From: a virus
DNA: 64,000 bases
Strand: one strand, 5' to 3'
IMG/VR virus record: IMGVR_UViG_3300016457_000282
Coordinates: 64,001 to 128,000 of that record
Shown: positions 11,161 to 45,922 of the stretch, in pieces
Position numbering within the stretch: position 1 is the stretch's first letter
Layout: each line of letters begins with the position of its first letter
Translations under genes and position numbers: made by a program
Notes under the pieces: generated by a model
Seen by the model: the letters and a program-made list of their open reading frames with translations, nothing else
Databases searched by the model: none
What the model was told of the DNA's origin: nothing

Positions 11161-11270
11161 CTAACTCGGTGAAATCCTTAGCAAATTTTGCTTAATAAGA
11201 TTTAATAAGATCTTATAAGATCTTATTAAATCTTATTAAGCAAAATTTGCTAAGGATTTCACCGAGTTAG
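11161..11270. other. Candidate hairpin telomere or resolution site at the palindrome axis
   Basis: AT-rich core with repeated TAAGAT around the axis, flanked by CTAACTCGGTGAAATCCTTA, a motif also found beside the parS-like sites. Confidence 0.55.
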
Positions 11271-38937: not shown

Positions 38938-38956
38938 ACGGGCCATGATGGCCCGT
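38938..38956. promoter_or_regulatory. parS-like palindrome 1
   Basis: ACGGGCCATGATGGCCCGT. Confidence 0.75.
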
Positions 38957-39123
38957 TCCTGAGTTGTAATGATTTCAATAAGTTAGCTGAGAAAATACAG
39001 AATTTTTTGTAGACAAAAATGAATGCAGGTATCTGTCAGATACGACAATTTGCGCGTTTTAGTAGTGTTTTTGTCAAGTTTGAAGTATAATTACTGACAA
39101 AACTAACAAAAAAGGAGGTTATC

Positions 39124-39816
39124 ATGTTAGAAGTTGATCGAAAACAACTCAAACGGATCACAAAGGTTAGTGATAAAGTGTTCTATGCTTACAAACCTCT
39201 ACAAAGACTACTACCTAACCTTACCAAAGCAGATATTGAGGACCTCAGAGAAGTTCTTAAGATGGAAGGATTAACAAAACCTTTGAGAGTAGTACTGTTC
39301 AGTGACAAGAAAGTCAAAAGGTATGTAGTGTTAGATGGTGTACATAGAGTTCAGATCGCAGTGGAGTTAGGTTTGGATTTGGAATTAGAAGAGGTTCAAG
39401 TGAGGAATGAGGAAGAGTTAGTAGAATTAGGATTGAAGCTCAATTTGCAGGAAAAGAGAGGTCGACAGATAAGTAAGAGACAGTTGGTAAAAAGATTACG
39501 AAAAGTACACTCTGATCTGTCTTTTGAAGAGTTCTGTGTGGTGTTGAAAGAGAAGTATGGTCTGCAGTTAAGTAAAGAGACAATCTCTAAGTATGTGTAC
39601 TTGAAACAGAGAGGACAGGTTAAGTCAAGTGAACAGAAGTGTCGTATTAAAAGACTTGCACAGGAACTTGGTTGTAAACCTAAAGAACTGGCAGAGACAG
39701 TGTGTACTTTGGTTAGGACAGTTCATCAAGTTGCTGGACCTCAATGGAAGACAATGTTGATGCAACTGTCAAATCCTGAACTAATAAGAGTTGTATCTAC
39801 TGTAGTACAGTCATAG
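39124..39816 (+). CDS. ParB/Srx N-terminal-domain protein with putative HTH
   Basis: G...PL.V, VLDGVHR, NL...R; AAGGAGGT RBS. Confidence 0.85.
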   Translation: MLEVDRKQLKRITKVSDKVFYAYKPLQRLLPNLTKADIEDLREVLKMEGLTKPLRVVLFSDKKVKRYVVLDGVHRVQIAVELGLDLELEEVQVRNEEELVELGLKLNLQEKRGRQISKRQLVKRLRKVHSDLSFEEFCVVLKEKYGLQLSKETISKYVYLKQRGQVKSSEQKCRIKRLAQELGCKPKELAETVCTLVRTVHQVAGPQWKTMLMQLSNPELIRVVSTVVQS

Positions 39817-39825
39817 TAACTCAAC

Positions 39826-39850
39826 CAAACGGGCCATGATGGCCCGTTTG
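39826..39850. promoter_or_regulatory. parS-like palindrome 2
   Basis: CAAACGGGCCATGATGGCCCGTTTG. Confidence 0.75.
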
Positions 39851-39851
39851 A

Positions 39852-39928
39852 AAAATCTCAATTTTACTATGCAAAACCGCGTGAAAAAGTCAAAAATGTT
39901 AGGTTTTACATAGTAAAATTGAGATTTT
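39852..39928. repeat. Inverted repeat with 27 bp arms, one mismatch
   Basis: AAAATCTCAATTTTACTATGCAAAACC / GGTTTTACATAGTAAAATTGAGATTTT. Confidence 0.9.
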
Positions 39929-40145
39929 ATTTTTCGGTACTTGTGAAAAAATTAAAGAAGCTCGGTTGTACATAGATAAAATTTCCTCAGTTTCTTATAC
40001 AAAAACTTGCTGTTTTGTCTTTTTTGTAAGGTTCTACTATGTAAAACTATAAATTTTAGTAGACTGTTGCGAACCGTACTTCATTTTTGTCCTCAAAAAT
40101 TCCTACTTTTCTAAGCTAACTCGTTGAAATTATTACAACTCAGAC

Positions 40146-40164
40146 ACGGGCCATCATGGCCCGT
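40146..40164. promoter_or_regulatory. parS-like palindrome 3
   Basis: ACGGGCCATCATGGCCCGT. Confidence 0.75.
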
Positions 40165-40194
40165 TTGGCTCAAAAAATGTATGTTTGTTATTCA

Positions 40195-40316
40195 AACCGA
40201 ACCAATTTTGACTAAATACTTACTTGTCTGATTAGTACCTTTCTCAGAGTATATGACAAGTACAATCGGTACCTAACTAATGTAAGAGTAAGTACTTACT
40301 CAAAATCAGTTCGGTT
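40195..40316. repeat. Imperfect inverted repeat with 30 bp arms
   Basis: 40195-40224 pairs with 40287-40316, about 4 mismatches. Confidence 0.8.
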
Positions 40317-40794
40317 ACTCACTTAACAAATGAGCTACCCATCTATGAAGCACTTCCCATCGTACCTTCATTGTCTTAGCACCACATAGTACCAATCCGT
40401 TACCTTCTCTAATCGCGTTCCAGTCTAGCTCGAACAGATCGTACTTAGGATTGTACTCTCCTGTACGGTCACTGAACTCTGTGATTAGTACTTTCTTATG
40501 TTCTGCAGTGAACCCTAGAGCTTCTAGTATTGTATCCCACACATCATATGGTTGTCCTTGTACTTCGTTGGACAGTCCTTCCGCAGCAATTCTAAGGAAC
40601 CCTTTAGCAATATCTAACCTTATCTTTTCCTTGTGTGTCTTTGGTTGTATTTCCTCTAACTTCTCTCTCAAAGATTGGGCATATACTTTAGGACGGCACC
40701 ATCTGAACTGGTCCGTCCAATCCCAATCCCAGTACTTATTGAACTGTCTCTTTCTTTTCTCGTTTAGTATCCTAACCGCGCCTCTCTTGGCCAT
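40315..40794 (-). CDS. Hypothetical protein, putative early gene
   Basis: AAGGAGGT RBS. Confidence 0.75.
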   Translation of the reverse strand: MAKRGAVRILNEKRKRQFNKYWDWDWTDQFRWCRPKVYAQSLREKLEEIQPKTHKEKIRLDIAKGFLRIAAEGLSNEVQGQPYDVWDTILEALGFTAEHKKVLITEFSDRTGEYNPKYDLFELDWNAIREGNGLVLCGAKTMKVRWEVLHRWVAHLLSE

Positions 40795-41000
40795 ACTACC
40801 TCCTTTCTTGTCTCAGTGAACCACTCTTCGTTTCGGTCACAAAGACGGTTTTGATTGTGTTGAAGTCGAGAGAACAGGACCAATTATTGAGTTCTGAAAC
40901 TGTATTCCAGTTATGTATGGTATGCCATTCCTTACACGTGTTACACTATACCTGTACTTCTCTCATTACTCTACCTCCTTTTCCTAAGTGGTTATTAACA

Positions 41001-41028
41001 TAAGGGACCCTAACAAAAGGGTCCCTTA
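41001..41028. terminator. Stem-loop, probable terminator
   Basis: TAAGGGACCC-TAACAAAA-GGGTCCCTTA. Confidence 0.55.
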
Positions 41029-41043
41029 TCAACTTAAGGTTCG

Positions 41044-41382
41044 CTATTTCTCATCTCTTACTCTGTAGTATAATTGACCGACTTCCGACCTATACAATGT
41101 CTTTCCAACTTGGGACATTACCTTCTTGTACAGATCGGGCTTCTTCTGTTCCATTAGCTTACATACCACATAGAAGGCCGCTCCTGGTCCTAATGTCTCA
41201 TACTCTTCTTGACCTACTTCCTTCTTAATTGTCCGTAAGGTTTCCCTGGCAAAGGATATGTGTCCTAGGCCGGCCGATTGTCCTTTCTTCCTCTGACGGG
41301 CTTGGGTCAATAAGTCCCTCAAGGATACCTGTTCCTCTCTTTTCTGAAGATCGGGATTGTGGATAACTGTCACTTTTTCCAT
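41044..41382 (-). CDS. Putative early protein, paralog of 43005-43316
   Basis: NPDL, LGH.S, IK.EVG.EE..TLGP, KPDL and EV..LYYR are shared. Confidence 0.8.
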   Translation of the reverse strand: MEKVTVIHNPDLQKREEQVSLRDLLTQARQRKKGQSAGLGHISFARETLRTIKKEVGQEEYETLGPGAAFYVVCKLMEQKKPDLYKKVMSQVGKTLYRSEVGQLYYRVRDEK

Positions 41383-41483
41383 TTTTTCTCCTCCTTTCTT
41401 CTTTTTTACCGGTTAACGTTTAAAATTATAAAAATTTTATTTATAAATAAGAAAATGTAACTCGACCATCACCTCCTTTTCTC

Positions 41484-41858
41484 TTAAAAGGCCACAATCC
41501 ACCCTTCATGCTTGAAGACAGCTTTCTTCTCAACTGTACCATCTTCAAGCACCTTTTCTTCAACCATTCTCTTTGTGAAAGAGAAAAGCGGTGTTACTCC
41601 TCTACACCGCAATATTGCCGCCAACGGAGTCATGAAGAACAAGGCTCCTCCAATCATCGCTTTTGTAACTCCGTGTTCAACGGCAATGTCGGCTAGAGCC
41701 TGTGCTTTAGACATCACTTCTTCATAAGACGGGAGTTCATTAAACGTTAGCAACTCTCTTACCTTCTCTTTATCCTTCGGTTCAATTACTCCTGCTTCAA
41801 TCTGATCCGACGTGGCTGGATGTTGTGTTAGGTTCAAAATTTTCTCCTTTTTTTCCAT
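41484..41858 (-). CDS. NLTQH-motif Rossmann-like protein, function uncertain
   Basis: ILNLTQH.AT..Q..AGV, LLTF.ELP, AMIGGA, DG.V.K...F.H.G. Confidence 0.75.
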   Translation of the reverse strand: MEKKEKILNLTQHPATSDQIEAGVIEPKDKEKVRELLTFNELPSYEEVMSKAQALADIAVEHGVTKAMIGGALFFMTPLAAILRCRGVTPLFSFTKRMVEEKVLEDGTVEKKAVFKHEGWIVAF

Positions 41859-42026
41859 TTTTCTGCCCCCTTTTCTCTTTTTTACAGGATTCACGCAAAA
41901 TTTTAAAAAAATTTTAGATAAAATTATATGTAAATAAAAAAATATGACCTAACCTGTCCTCATTTTTTGCCTCAAAAAATTCCTACTTTTCTAAGTTAAC
42001 CTATTGAAATCATTACAACTCCTGAC

Positions 42027-42043
42027 CGGGCCATGGTGGCCCG
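42027..42043. promoter_or_regulatory. parS-like palindrome 4
   Basis: CGGGCCATGGTGGCCCG. Confidence 0.7.
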
Positions 42044-42179
42044 TCTGTCACTACTTTCTGAGACAACCCCCGGCAGATGAACCAAACTAACCTTCCCTTT
42101 CCTTTAACAAAGCAGACGGAGGGATCCCAAGGTCCCTTTTAAGAACCCGGTTCTTGTTACCTGACCTAAACCCGTGGTA

Positions 42180-42683
42180 CTACAGTAACTTATCTACCAA
42201 CCGGGCCAGGTCATCCAAATCTCCCCAAGGAATCTCTCTAGGATCACCTGGAGAATCGTTCCAATAATACGGATTAACCGGGTATTTCTCCTCTAACTCG
42301 AGGAGTTTTAATCCGTATCCGGTCTGAATCTCCGGGTCCCTAACCAACTCCGGCCTCTGCTTACGAGGTCTCCCTCTCTTAACCGAGGCCTTCGCTTTAG
42401 TTAGGAGATCCCTTAAGGAGCCTTCTGGAGCAGGAGTGGTCTTCTCTTCTAACCTACGTACCTCTTCTTGATACTGTAGGTTAGCTGACCACTCCGCCAT
42501 CCATGCTGATGGAGAGTGGTACGGAAGCCATTCCCACTCATTCCTCTTAAGTTTCGTGCCCAACAGAGCCTTAGGTTTGGAGGCCTTACGGTCACTTATC
42601 ACAGGACGGTGACCACGACCTCTCTTCCGTCGACTCTGAGCACGAGCCTGTTGAAGGAGCTCCTTAATATTCACTTTTCTCAC
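42180..42683 (-). CDS. Basic putative early protein with AT-hook-like KRGRPRK
   Basis: AAGGAG RBS; degenerate paralog at 37103-37574. Confidence 0.8.
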   Translation of the reverse strand: MRKVNIKELLQQARAQSRRKRGRGHRPVISDRKASKPKALLGTKLKRNEWEWLPYHSPSAWMAEWSANLQYQEEVRRLEEKTTPAPEGSLRDLLTKAKASVKRGRPRKQRPELVRDPEIQTGYGLKLLELEEKYPVNPYYWNDSPGDPREIPWGDLDDLARLVDKLL

Positions 42684-42785
42684 CTCCTTTCTGGGCCGGT
42701 TGCCCTAAATACCTCAACGACTTTTTTGCCCCCGAAATTTACGAGTTTTTCAGGGTAATCTACTGAAATCATTACAATTCCTGAC

Positions 42786-42802
42786 CGGGCCATCATGGCC
42801 CG
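42786..42802. promoter_or_regulatory. parS-like palindrome 5
   Basis: CGGGCCATCATGGCCCG. Confidence 0.75.
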
Positions 42803-43004
42803 TGTCGTTAAGGTATTTAGGACGGTCACAAAGGATGTTCAGTCCTTTGTGACCTTGTAACCTCATTACAGTAGGTTCGGGTTGGTTTTGAAGGTCCGTC
42901 AGTGTAGCTCCCGACCGTCCGTACCCGTTACGGATCGGGCCTTAACGGACCTTTGTGTGTAAAGAGGGTTTACAGGACTCTCCTTACCTTACCTTCAACC
43001 TCTA

Positions 43005-43316
43005 CTACTTTTCCCTGTAGTAGAGGTTGAATACCTCCCTTTTAAACCTTTCTTCCCCTACCTCTTCTTTAATCCGGGGAAGAAGGTCAGGTTTTCTCTG
43101 TTTTATCAGTTCCACCACCACTTTGTACACAGTGGTGGGTCCGAGAGTCCCGAACTCTTCGGTCCCAACCTCTCTCTTTATTTCCCGAATGTATGTTCGG
43201 GAGAGGGACACGTGTCCCAAGGTACGTTGTGGTTTCTGGGTTTTTACCTGGGAGATCAGGGTTTTGATGGTGACCTGGGGTTTAAGGTCAGGGTTGTAAA
43301 TTTTCAAGTTCTTCAT
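43005..43316 (-). CDS. Alanine-free putative early protein
   Basis: AAGGAGGAGGT RBS and upstream TATAAT; paralog of 41044-41382. Confidence 0.8.
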   Translation of the reverse strand: MKNLKIYNPDLKPQVTIKTLISQVKTQKPQRTLGHVSLSRTYIREIKREVGTEEFGTLGPTTVYKVVVELIKQRKPDLLPRIKEEVGEERFKREVFNLYYREK

Positions 43317-43394
43317 AATTTACCTCCTCCTTTCTTAAGTTTAAGTGATGTTTTAATTTTAGGTAAATTATAATAGGGGAGGCGAATTTAACTC

Positions 43395-43670
43395 GTATGG
43401 GTCCTTACTATATAACCCTCTTCCTCTGTTGTACAGACCCTCTGTAATATAAACCTCACTATATGAACCTTTGTTATGTAAACTCCTATTACATAGACCT
43501 TGTTATATAGAGTCCTTACTATATAACCCTCTTCCTCTCCTGTTGTACAAACCCTCTGTAATATAAACCTCACTAATATGAACCTCGTTAATATATGAAG
43601 TCCTTACTATATGAATCCCCAGTTAAATGAACCTTCATTATATAGGTCCCTATCGTGTAGGTTCTTACTA
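43395..43670. repeat. Degenerate ~15 bp periodic array containing a ~70 bp direct duplication
   Basis: ATATRRACCY-like units; 43401-43470 recurs at 43512-43585. Confidence 0.8.
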
Positions 43671-43913
43671 AGTACTGTTTAAGTTCTATTTAGGTTCCCA
43701 TCTAGGTCCTATTCCTATTTTAGGTTCCTCACTAAGGTACCAATTTAAGCGCCTTTTACCTTGAGTTCCTATTCACTGTTAATACCCTTCTTTTCTCAAT
43801 CTCAGTTCTTATCTACTTCTTCTTAGATAAGTGTCGTATATCACGAACTCTTGAAAAAGGGAACAGATCGGAGGTAAACTCTAAAAAACTTGTATCAGAA
43901 GGAGTAATTAATT

Positions 43914-44657
43914 ATGTGGTATGTCAATACTATTGGAAGTAAGTACAAGTATATCAAAGCTATAGAAGAAGTTATTGATAAGGAAGTTAAAGGAACAAGA
44001 AGGGTTATAGAACCTTTTGCAGGTACTTATACTATTAGTCATTTAATGGTTAGGAAAGGTTTGCATGTAATTAGTAATGATATAGGATGGTGGTCGTATA
44101 GTATAGGGCGGGCGTTGGTTGGAGATGGGAAGTGGTTTGGCACCGCAGTGAGAGTGGTAAGTGTACTAGAAAGTGTTAGAAGGGTACCTAGTGAAGGGTA
44201 CGATAGGAAGTTGAAGAAGGATAAGATGGAAGAGATAGCAAGGAGGTTAAGAGAGAATAGGGTTAGAGGAGGAAGGTTAGTAGTTAGTAGAGGGAGTTAT
44301 GATGAGTTTTTGAGGAAAGTTAAGAGAGTGGGAAGAGGTAGTGTTGTATATATAGATACTCCTAAAGTATTTAGGTCGGCGAAGGAGAGTGTTTTTAAGA
44401 ATTTTCCTAAGTTGGACAGTTGGTTAATAGGTAAAGAAGTAGAGTATGAATTGTGGAATGAGAGTAATGTAAGAGAACATCATGAGAGGTTATTTAAGTT
44501 AGTGAGCGCGGTGGGGGTTAGGAAGGTGATTGTGGAATGCTACAAGAAGGCGGTACCTAAAGTGGATGAGATTGAGAGGATGATGAGGAAGTATTGGAAG
44601 GTAAGAAGAGCACATGAATTTAAGAATGACATTACTTTAGTAGGAGAGGAAAAATGA
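43914..44657 (+). CDS. Dam/D12-class adenine methyltransferase homolog with altered catalytic motif
   Basis: IGSK, EPFAG, SND; motif IV reads YIDTPK rather than DPPY. Confidence 0.7.
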   Translation: MWYVNTIGSKYKYIKAIEEVIDKEVKGTRRVIEPFAGTYTISHLMVRKGLHVISNDIGWWSYSIGRALVGDGKWFGTAVRVVSVLESVRRVPSEGYDRKLKKDKMEEIARRLRENRVRGGRLVVSRGSYDEFLRKVKRVGRGSVVYIDTPKVFRSAKESVFKNFPKLDSWLIGKEVEYELWNESNVREHHERLFKLVSAVGVRKVIVECYKKAVPKVDEIERMMRKYWKVRRAHEFKNDITLVGEEK

Positions 44658-45922
44658 AGGCGGTAGGTTTGGTAACTAAGAAAATTGGGGAAGTGTGCTT
44701 GGTCAAAATACCAGGAGTAAAAAGGGTTTTGGTTAGAGGAAATTGGAGGTTAGGAGAGAAGGTAGAGTTGGATGTTGACTTGCTCAAGGGGAAAGAAGAG
44801 GTAATAGTGTTGAGAGTGAAGAGTGTTAAAAAGGGAGAAGGAGAGTTGGGTGTTGAGATGGTTAGGAAGAGTGGAGCTGAGATAGGTAAGAGAGAAGTTT
44901 TAACGGGAACTTTATGTTCGCAAAGCAAGCGTAAAGTGGTGAAAGCAACTCCTGAGGTACTTTGGGATAGTAGGAGGATTCAAAAATACCTAGAGTTTTG
45001 TGATCAGTATAAATTACCTGCGAGTATTGTTAGTTGGAAGTATGGTATAGTCCCAAGGGAAGCAGAAGTGTTCAATTACGATGAGTTCGAGACTAAGAGG
45101 GTTGAGCATTGGGTGAAAGTGCTGAAAGAGGCTAGAGATAGATATGGTATAAGAGAATTGTATATGTGGTTTGACCCTAGTAAAAGAACTATGAGTAGTA
45201 CTATTTTGGAAGCGGCAAGGAGGGTGTTTGAGAAGAGTGGAGGAACGAGGCACCTGTATAACCTAAATAGATATCTAAATGGAAGGAGAGACCTCGAGGA
45301 TGTAGTTAGTTCTTGGATACCCGTGAGATCACGAGTGATTGTAATCAATTCAGGTGATTTCTCTCTGTTGTATCACCTAACAAACGAGAAGTATTGTAGG
45401 TGTGTTGTGTATGATGATAGACCATGGGCGAAGGAGGTTCAGAAGGCAGTAATTAAGAGGGAGAGGATCCCAAAGAGGTTGCCAGAGGAACTACCTGAGT
45501 TACTTAAGCATAAGAACCTAACCGTCCGTGCAGCTGCAATTCTGTATTTCCTCCGACATAAAGAGATAGGAAATGTCGATCTGTCTGAGTTGAGAGAAAT
45601 TGGAGAGATCCTCTTAAAAACTGGAAGGTATAGGAGAGTCGAAGTACGACATGTCTTTCCTAAGATACTGAAGAACGATATTGTACTGGTCAAAGAACCT
45701 ACCTCACATTCCTTCCTTGAAAAGTACTTCGGCGAGACAAAAAAAGATTTTGACTGGGATAAGGTAATGTTCAAGTTGGGAGAGGAACTCCCTTCTAGTG
45801 TACTGATAATTCGAGAAGGTAAACTGAAAGAAGTGAACAGTTTCTACCAAAAAACTGGGAAGTACTTTAGTGATAGATCGGTTTTGACTCTTAACGATAA
45901 TGTTGTGTATAGGTGCGCTTAA
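44654..45922 (+). CDS. Multidomain protein with DUF6884-like central domain
   Basis: CS..K.....P..L..S ... IVS.KYG......V.NYD. Confidence 0.6.
   Translation: MKAVGLVTKKIGEVCLVKIPGVKRVLVRGNWRLGEKVELDVDLLKGKEEVIVLRVKSVKKGEGELGVEMVRKSGAEIGKREVLTGTLCSQSKRKVVKATPEVLWDSRRIQKYLEFCDQYKLPASIVSWKYGIVPREAEVFNYDEFETKRVEHWVKVLKEARDRYGIRELYMWFDPSKRTMSSTILEAARRVFEKSGGTRHLYNLNRYLNGRRDLEDVVSSWIPVRSRVIVINSGDFSLLYHLTNEKYCRCVVYDDRPWAKEVQKAVIKRERIPKRLPEELPELLKHKNLTVRAAAILYFLRHKEIGNVDLSELREIGEILLKTGRYRRVEVRHVFPKILKNDIVLVKEPTSHSFLEKYFGETKKDFDWDKVMFKLGEELPSSVLIIREGKLKEVNSFYQKTGKYFSDRSVLTLNDNVVYRCA

Follow-up and report, generated by a model that had tools for sequence, protein, structure and literature searches.

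One kilobase of a vent phage genome is almost devoid of the dinucleotide GpC, and the gene that it contains encodes a protein with no alanine. This tract (positions 42941 to 43958, no strand assigned) lies in the window, by which we mean the whole 64,000-nucleotide stretch that was analyzed (positions 64,001 to 128,000 of IMG/VR record IMGVR_UViG_3300016457_000282). Direct counting in these 1,018 bp gave 3 GpC steps, while 37.2 would be expected from the local base composition. We postulate that the tract is a GpC-free module kept by selection, made up of the first gene of a leftward operon with its 3'-terminal hairpin and the repeat array upstream, and that this module is the first to act and escapes a host factor that reads GC. 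We hold this reading with slightly less than even confidence.

Our recount agreed to the base with an earlier note on this DNA, which had found only three GpC steps in about 1,020 bp, at 43382, 43749, and 43751, and none from 42941 to 43381. Of all the intervals between GpC steps in the window, the two longest meet here (42939-43382, 443 bp, and 43382-43749, 367 bp), and the longest GpC-free run (42941-43381) corresponds to the gene for the alanine-free, 103-aa protein plus about 65 nt on either side. All 16 dinucleotides were scanned in 1-kb intervals over the 75,215 bp of unique sequence in the record, with the expectation scaled by the genome-wide bias of each dinucleotide. No dinucleotide anywhere in the genome is more strongly depleted than GpC in the intervals over the tract (in the listed interval, from 42816, there were 5 GpC versus 35.6 expected; P 1.9e-10), and the second strongest deficit was that of AC in pentapeptide-repeat genes (P 1.7e-6). 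Among words of two to four letters, strong depletion was confined to GC and words that contain GC. CpG in the tract is at about half of its expectation, and GG and CC are raised.

Every part of the tract contributes to the deficit. GpC steps number 0 versus 2.9 expected in the 3' flank of the 103-aa gene, 3 versus 16.9 in the intergenic region, and 2 versus 11.2 in the repeat array, where CpG is low too. The genome contains about 2,840 GpC steps, and there is no genome-wide avoidance. A sliding comparison of observed and expected GpC, which the earlier note had proposed as a check, detected no other comparable trough in the unique genome; a second trough in the profile of the full record is the mirror image of the tract, as the record is palindromic. 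Of 314 variants between the stretch and contigs of the metagenome runs, the first 40 all fell outside the trough. The trough is real, and it is the single such deficit in the genome.

The 103-aa protein is encoded by the first gene of the leftward operon (43005-43316, minus strand), which we characterized from its open reading frame, by synonymous resampling, and in a family alignment. The protein is basic and all-helical, is rich in Lys and Arg as read from its sequence, and has 0 alanines, compared with a genome mean of 6.4%. The earlier note had set this gene against a paralog with several alanines, and the comparison holds: the backbone paralog (41044-41382, minus strand; 112 aa; 43% identity by BLASTP, E 4e-29) has 5 alanines and 8 GpC. 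It is 90% identical to its ortholog on the related contig L004.

What is avoided is the nucleic-acid word GC and not alanine as such, and the avoidance recurs in alleles that share 44% protein identity. The 103-aa gene has 0 GpC despite a G+C content of 46%. When its codons were redrawn synonymously according to the phage's own usage, the mean was 6.9 GpC, and none of 3,000 draws reached zero. Not one of the 24 codons ahead of a codon starting with C ends in G. Because GpC is missing from synonymous sites and codon junctions at which 6.9 would be expected, the avoidance acts on the nucleic acid, and because the G+C content of the gene is above the genome mean, it is avoidance of a word rather than AT-richness. 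An artefact of chance or of amino acid composition has in its favor only that a small gene would be free of alanine about 0.1% of the time at 6.4% alanine; it is refuted by the probability of the deficit (P about 2e-10), by the count of 0 versus 6.9 at synonymous and junction sites, and by the repetition of the pattern in an ortholog (P0002) and in L004, and we consider its likelihood negligible. Selection against the DNA or RNA word GC is the likely cause of the deficit, to judge by these patterns in the sequence.

Other candidate causes and targets were tried and rejected. A cause at the level of alanine alone, such as the loss of tRNA-Ala, is ruled out by the GpC steps that are missing from synonymous, junction, and noncoding positions too. 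The footprint of simple deamination was not evident; GT and AC are up only slightly, and GG and CC are up most. A context-specific target such as RGCY was rejected on the ground that all NGCN contexts are down two- to threefold. Avoidance of an enzyme with two half-sites (GC-Nn-GC) was also rejected, there being no dip at any spacing genome-wide but only codon periodicity, and so was a genome-wide avoidance of palindromes with a GC core. Since neither GC-core palindromes nor GC-Nn-GC words are avoided genome-wide, the pressure is local, and a local pressure means that the module is special in the timing of its exposure, in the timing of its use, or in its own biology.

A profile search of 1.84 billion representatives placed the 103-aa protein in a small family of proteins of about 100 aa (9 clusters). 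In the family alignment, only this protein and P0002, its 77% identical ortholog, are free of alanine; the seven more distant members contain it. Positions at which the family conserves alanine (QAK, [FY]AR, and GPxxA) are occupied by V, S, and T in the 103-aa protein. As these conserved alanines are replaced in both the 103-aa protein and P0002, the loss of alanine is derived and has been kept through 23% divergence. An AF2 model made from the family alignment is an all-helical bundle (pLDDT 86). Fold searches with it returned nothing above background (Foldseek against PDB and BFVD, E > 1; VIA, best Z 6.3, without a clear match), and no named family could be assigned to the protein; nor did any HTH family match, as would be expected of an Xre-type controller (C) protein of a restriction-modification system. 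No relatives of the 103-aa protein, of the 422-aa protein described below, or of the zincin and the 167-aa and 159-aa proteins were found in IMG/VR, where P0015 had just two 40-residue matches, at chance level; a search for relatives in GTDB genomes and phage records gave no match.

A perfect 15-bp hairpin (inverted repeat I3; 42994-43031, minus strand) lies over the last codons and the stop codon of the 103-aa gene. Its predicted RNA fold has an energy of -23.8 kcal/mol (z -5.2), and it contains no GpC and no U-tract. In the L004 allele, an unrelated 12-bp perfect hairpin occupies the same place over the stop codon, also with z -5.2 and no U-tract. On the comparison of these two alleles, the predicted 3' hairpin is conserved in structure and not in sequence between the window and L004.

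The tract starts at the edge of a segment that is replaced in relatives of the phage. The stretch is present in four hydrothermal-vent metagenome runs, which are its possible sources, and a diverged form is present in two other runs. The hypervariable segment extends from 42947 to 45828 (no strand assigned), as delimited by a join in a strain of metagenome run X5 and by the limits of homology with L004, and in these two relatives the GpC-free tract starts right at the left edge of the segment. In the X5 strain, position 42953 is joined to 45940 with 748 unrelated letters between them, and the flanks differ piecewise by about 1 to 4%. Two JGI contigs, L003 and L004, have the same backbone as the window. 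Their neighboring genes encode proteins that are 84 to 97% identical to those of the window, except for 75% in the zincin adjoining the segment and 60% in a ParB-like protein; homology of L004 at the DNA level breaks off at window position 42946 and begins again at 45829. Instead of the 2.9 kb found in the window, L004 has 773 bp that contain an array and a gene for a 106-aa member of the family, 44% identical to the 103-aa protein. Both of the methylase-like genes that follow the tract in the window are missing from L004, apart from a remnant of 100 bp from the 3' end of the second (422-aa) gene.

Despite this replacement, the L004 allele avoids GpC as well. The intergenic region and gene together have 8 GpC versus 31 expected; in the 106-aa gene itself, all 3 GpC steps belong to alanine codons, and GpC outside alanine codons numbers 0 versus 5.45 expected. 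GpC is back immediately outside the segment edge in the window phage and L004 alike. Given that GpC is avoided, at sites free to mutate, by two alleles too diverged to be recognized as related from their DNA, selection against GC would have acted through most of their history. Judging by the joins and homology limits, the tract is the variable core of a recombination hot spot located where the tail and effector genes end and the long leftward operon of small genes begins. We also observed in L004 (1440-1703) an extra ORF of 87 aa, with about 210 bp inserted between the first gene and the conserved hairpin region, which is absent from the window.

The trough lies within a wider GpC-poor island (39124-45922, no strand assigned), defined by the per-gene count of GpC outside alanine codons. 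Over the eight genes of the island, this count is 40 versus 102 expected, whereas the ratio of observed to expected in the remaining genome is near 1.0; about 149 GpC steps are still present in the island. All NGCN contexts there are two- to threefold down except GGCC, which is the only GpC context enriched, in the form of GGCCATCATGGCC-type palindromes. A pattern search located five of these between genes (38941-42800, no strand assigned), or 5 sites per strand versus 0.39 expected. In the same region, a 65-bp stretch (42211-42275) recurs with 11 differences on the contig that continues left of 38000, which gave rise to joints of the type that "goes back" in three runs.

The island bears on the possibility that the low GpC content was imported, that is, that the variable module is horizontally exchanged from a GpC-poor pool of phages or mobile elements and that the trough has no present role at this locus. 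The exact start of the tract at a recombination edge is what such exchange would give. The same holds for the ParB-like gene (39124-39816), the second most diverged gene in the island (60% identical to its L004 counterpart, compared with about 90% for its neighbors), which has the strongest synonymous GpC depletion in the genome by z-score (4 versus 20.4). However, had selection ceased, about 7 GpC per gene would be expected to reappear at synonymous and junction sites, two alleles that are 56% apart in protein are both at zero GpC outside alanine codons, and conserved backbone genes of the island are depleted too. Zero in both alleles and a depleted backbone mean that importation would still need selection and would only move the place at which it acts, and we rate importation as rather unlikely.

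Upstream of the 103-aa gene, in a 597-bp divergent intergenic region, is a degenerate array of direct repeats (43395-43780, no strand assigned), with about 21 units in the same orientation and a period near 16 bp, supported by repeat families D1 to D5, an autocorrelation peak at 16, and the list of units. The units end in ACC or TCC on the plus strand, and the remainder of the window shows no enrichment of their motif. An array upstream of a small gene recalls the arrangement of iterons or a centromere with a small adaptor, in which the 103-aa protein would have a putative binding role. L004 (640-1030) has a different tandem array in its place, with a period of about 31 bp and rich in purines on the sense strand of the operon; a GGTTC-like core on that strand is common to both arrays. 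Rfam had no match for the array region, and scans for promoters and terminators yielded no more than chance would give. Part of the GpC deficit of the array follows from the amplification of a unit that is GC-free and strand-skewed.

The resemblance of the array, with its period near 16 bp, to iterons or operators, together with the origin of the samples in hydrothermal vents, might suggest that a physical property of the DNA is selected in a phage of thermophiles, the absence of the strongly stacking GpC step making the DNA easier to unwind or bend where an origin, a cluster of promoters, or a site of packaging lies. We find this very improbable. The G+C content of the 103-aa gene and the excess of GG and CC, which reach 1.5 to 1.8 times expectation, are the opposite of easy melting, and the other iteron-like array of the phage (38571-38745) has no comparable feature beyond AT-richness.

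Immunity at the level of RNA deserves more weight. It would require that the first transcript be GC-free so as to withstand a GC-cutting endoribonuclease, such as a toxin of the host or an RNase of abortive infection, and that the 103-aa protein either neutralize the RNase or act in the meantime. The longest GpC-free run resembles a transcription unit, with its gene, its short flanks, and its strong 3' hairpin, and this reading would explain why only one gene is fully cleared. The first gene also evolves far faster than its neighbors (44% identity versus 84 to 97%), as arms-race genes do. MqsR cuts at GCU, and the mRNAs of its own operon are largely without GCU. Toxin-resistant transcripts of this kind, including GCU-poor mqsRA and ACA-less mRNAs, are cleared of strand-specific words of 3 nt. 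They are alike in that a whole transcript is cleared of the word of an endoribonuclease, but here noncoding DNA is cleared too: the presumably untranscribed array is nearly free of GpC, for which repeat amplification could account. GC is its own reverse complement, so that the strands are indistinguishable. We know of no RNase with plain GC specificity. All considered, we regard an RNA-level explanation as unlikely, though it merits serious consideration.

On the other side of the tract are two genes that point rightward. The earlier note had sited the tract between a leftward gene cluster and rightward methyltransferase genes, and the ORF map bears this out for the methylase-like genes. The first gene (43914-44657, plus strand) encodes a 247-aa homolog of D12 methyltransferases, which matches Pfam PF02086 over residues 7 to 71 only (E 2.6e-11), the profile covering just the N-terminal quarter of the protein; PADLOC gave MTase_II matches. 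Within the PF02086 match, the protein has an AdoMet-binding motif of the FxGxG type (motif I, EPFAG). Its motif IV is DTPK and not the catalytic DPPY of the D12 N6-adenine enzymes, and IDTPKVF is invariant across three homologs (the aligned relatives being 83% and 43% identical). The DTPK proteins may form a distinct D12-like subfamily with altered chemistry, as their motifs suggest. The second gene (44654-45922, plus strand) encodes a 422-aa protein of no named family, without a sequence match in Pfam, PHROG, or PDB. Its middle domain is DUF6884-like, as weakly indicated by an Atlas structure match over residues 81 to 205 and a sub-threshold match to PF21818 over residues ~87 to 144 (E 0.0014), and it has a CxxxK motif (LCSQSK). 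No restriction enzyme was recognized beside the 103-aa gene and the methylase-like genes, and no C5 or N4/N6 beta-class methylase was found.

These genes raise the possibility that the phage avoids its own DNA modification. The DTPK enzyme and the DUF6884-like protein would modify sites that contain GC, and the control region and the gene of the regulator would be kept unmodified. Both genes are inside the same variable segment, divergent from the tract; DUF6884 proteins have been proposed to be base-flipping DNA binders (PMC11701544); and the remnant of the 422-aa gene in L004 suggests that the enzymes are perhaps ancestral at the locus. But L004 is without both genes and is still GpC-poor, GpC is present in the enzymes' own genes and throughout the remaining genome, the base methylated by D12 enzymes is adenine, and a regulatory need would not drive alanine from a coding sequence. 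That the phage avoids its own modification strikes us as improbable, but the shared segment and the remnant leave some probability to a link between the tract and a phage-encoded DNA modification. The earlier note had offered selection against nuclease sites or against the phage's own modification as alternatives: selection on the word GC stands, and the second alternative is weakened by L004.

The nuclease alternative brings the tract close to known cases of local site avoidance. In phages T5 and BF23, type I and type II restriction-modification systems are effective only against sites within the part of the genome that is transferred first; a noncoding stretch rich in repeats borders this part (PMC10644984). 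The module resembles this first-step transfer in that the part exposed to restriction is free of nuclease sites that the remainder carries unharmed, in its small, putatively early gene, and in its repeat-rich noncoding border (PMC10644984). The tract shows the same local freedom from a site that is present elsewhere in the genome, with 3 versus 37 GpC locally and about 2,840 in the genome. The differences are in scale and target. The T5 region is about 10 kb long, lies inside the terminal repeat, and avoids ordinary sites of 4 to 8 bp; the module here is 1 kb with one gene and, unlike T5, avoids the bare dinucleotide GC at the cost of all alanine in the protein. Avoidance of palindromes by phages is another likeness, as selection removes a short self-complementary word from the DNA, but it is usually genome-wide and site-specific, whereas here it is local and independent of context. 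A literature search found no description of local GpC-free, alanine-free phage regions.

At the leading end of T7, gene 0.3 (ocr) is the first gene expressed, and ocr is an acidic DNA mimic. The gene order of the window resembles the left end of T7, with genes in one direction, a late/early junction, short repeats, and then a first small gene that would act ahead of the exposure of the remaining DNA, but the 103-aa protein is basic and helical, unlike ocr. The earlier note took the tract to be the end at which virion DNA enters. The one observation in favor of an entry end is that the late-to-early junction of a one-directional genome is compatible, by analogy, with a left end like that of T7. 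The tract is traversed without a break by contigs from several datasets.

The ends of the record itself are peculiar. Its 150,430 bp are their own reverse complement with zero mismatches, with the axis at window position 11215|11216, and the unique sequence of 75,215 bp runs from 11216 to 86430 in window numbering. The axis is flanked by TAAGATCTTA palindromes, and AAGTACTT palindromes are near the record ends. The palindrome could reflect a real hairpin or replicative form, or else a fold-back that arose during assembly. In the whole record there was no match to a family of terminase, portal, or major capsid proteins, and no cos site was found. Tail genes, among them those for a 2,205-aa tape-measure-like protein and a J-like tail protein, continue up to the record end (window numbering 64001-86430; L001 and L002), and the last gene of the record is a LAGLIDADG homing endonuclease. 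With head gene families missing and tail genes extending to the very end, it is probable that the record is incomplete and represents a single arm of a larger genome; other assemblies that carry the phage's proteins reach 108 and 187 kb. The earlier note had also drawn a parallel with N15, in which virion and prophage ends are separate. We found no support for this parallel: protelomerase (PF16684, the TelN/ResT catalytic domain) gave no match at E <= 1 in the record, itself perhaps a fragment, and what stands for the "hairpin" at present is a perfect palindrome of the assembly.

We return to the selected module as our preferred reading. It would comprise the first small gene of a leftward, probably early operon, the 3' hairpin of that gene, and the repeat array as a control region, and it would have to function at a stage when the other protections of the phage are not yet in place. 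Being free of GC, the module would escape a host factor that recognizes this word; this factor would most likely be a DNA nuclease that attacks the DNA first exposed or used, following the logic of T5. The remaining genome could keep its normal GpC content if it were exposed only after the early function had acted, and the twofold-depleted island of 7 kb might be the weaker tail of the same pressure. Against this reading, a "leading region" of 1 kb that holds a single gene would be very small, and the partial depletion on both sides of the trough is a poor fit to a single polarity of entry. To our knowledge, no bacterial or archaeal enzyme has plain GC specificity.

In a broader form, the proposal is that many aquatic and thermophilic microbes have a defense factor, be it an RNase or a DNA nuclease, that reads bare GC, and that phages respond by clearing GpC from the gene that acts first and from its control DNA, at the price of proteins without alanine. 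In this phage the result would be a swappable 1-kb module whose alleles go down to 44% identity and stay GpC-free. We offer this generalization as a speculation that is possible but on the whole doubtful.

Local site avoidance in early DNA is already known, and there is a real chance that the agent behind it here is new. If selection against the bare dinucleotide is real, it implies a host factor with 2-bp specificity that is absent from the catalogues of restriction and abortive-infection systems, and the signature would also mark the phage gene that has to act first. The case offers a vent phage in which the module measures a minimal 1 kb and in which one allele is seen directly to replace another without loss of the signature. 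Being small, bounded, and naturally swapped between near-identical phages, the module is a compact test object of one gene, an array, and a hairpin. The ratio of observed to expected GpC on a local scale, combined with the loss of alanine, is a computable signature that may serve to find the earliest-acting genes in uncultured phages.
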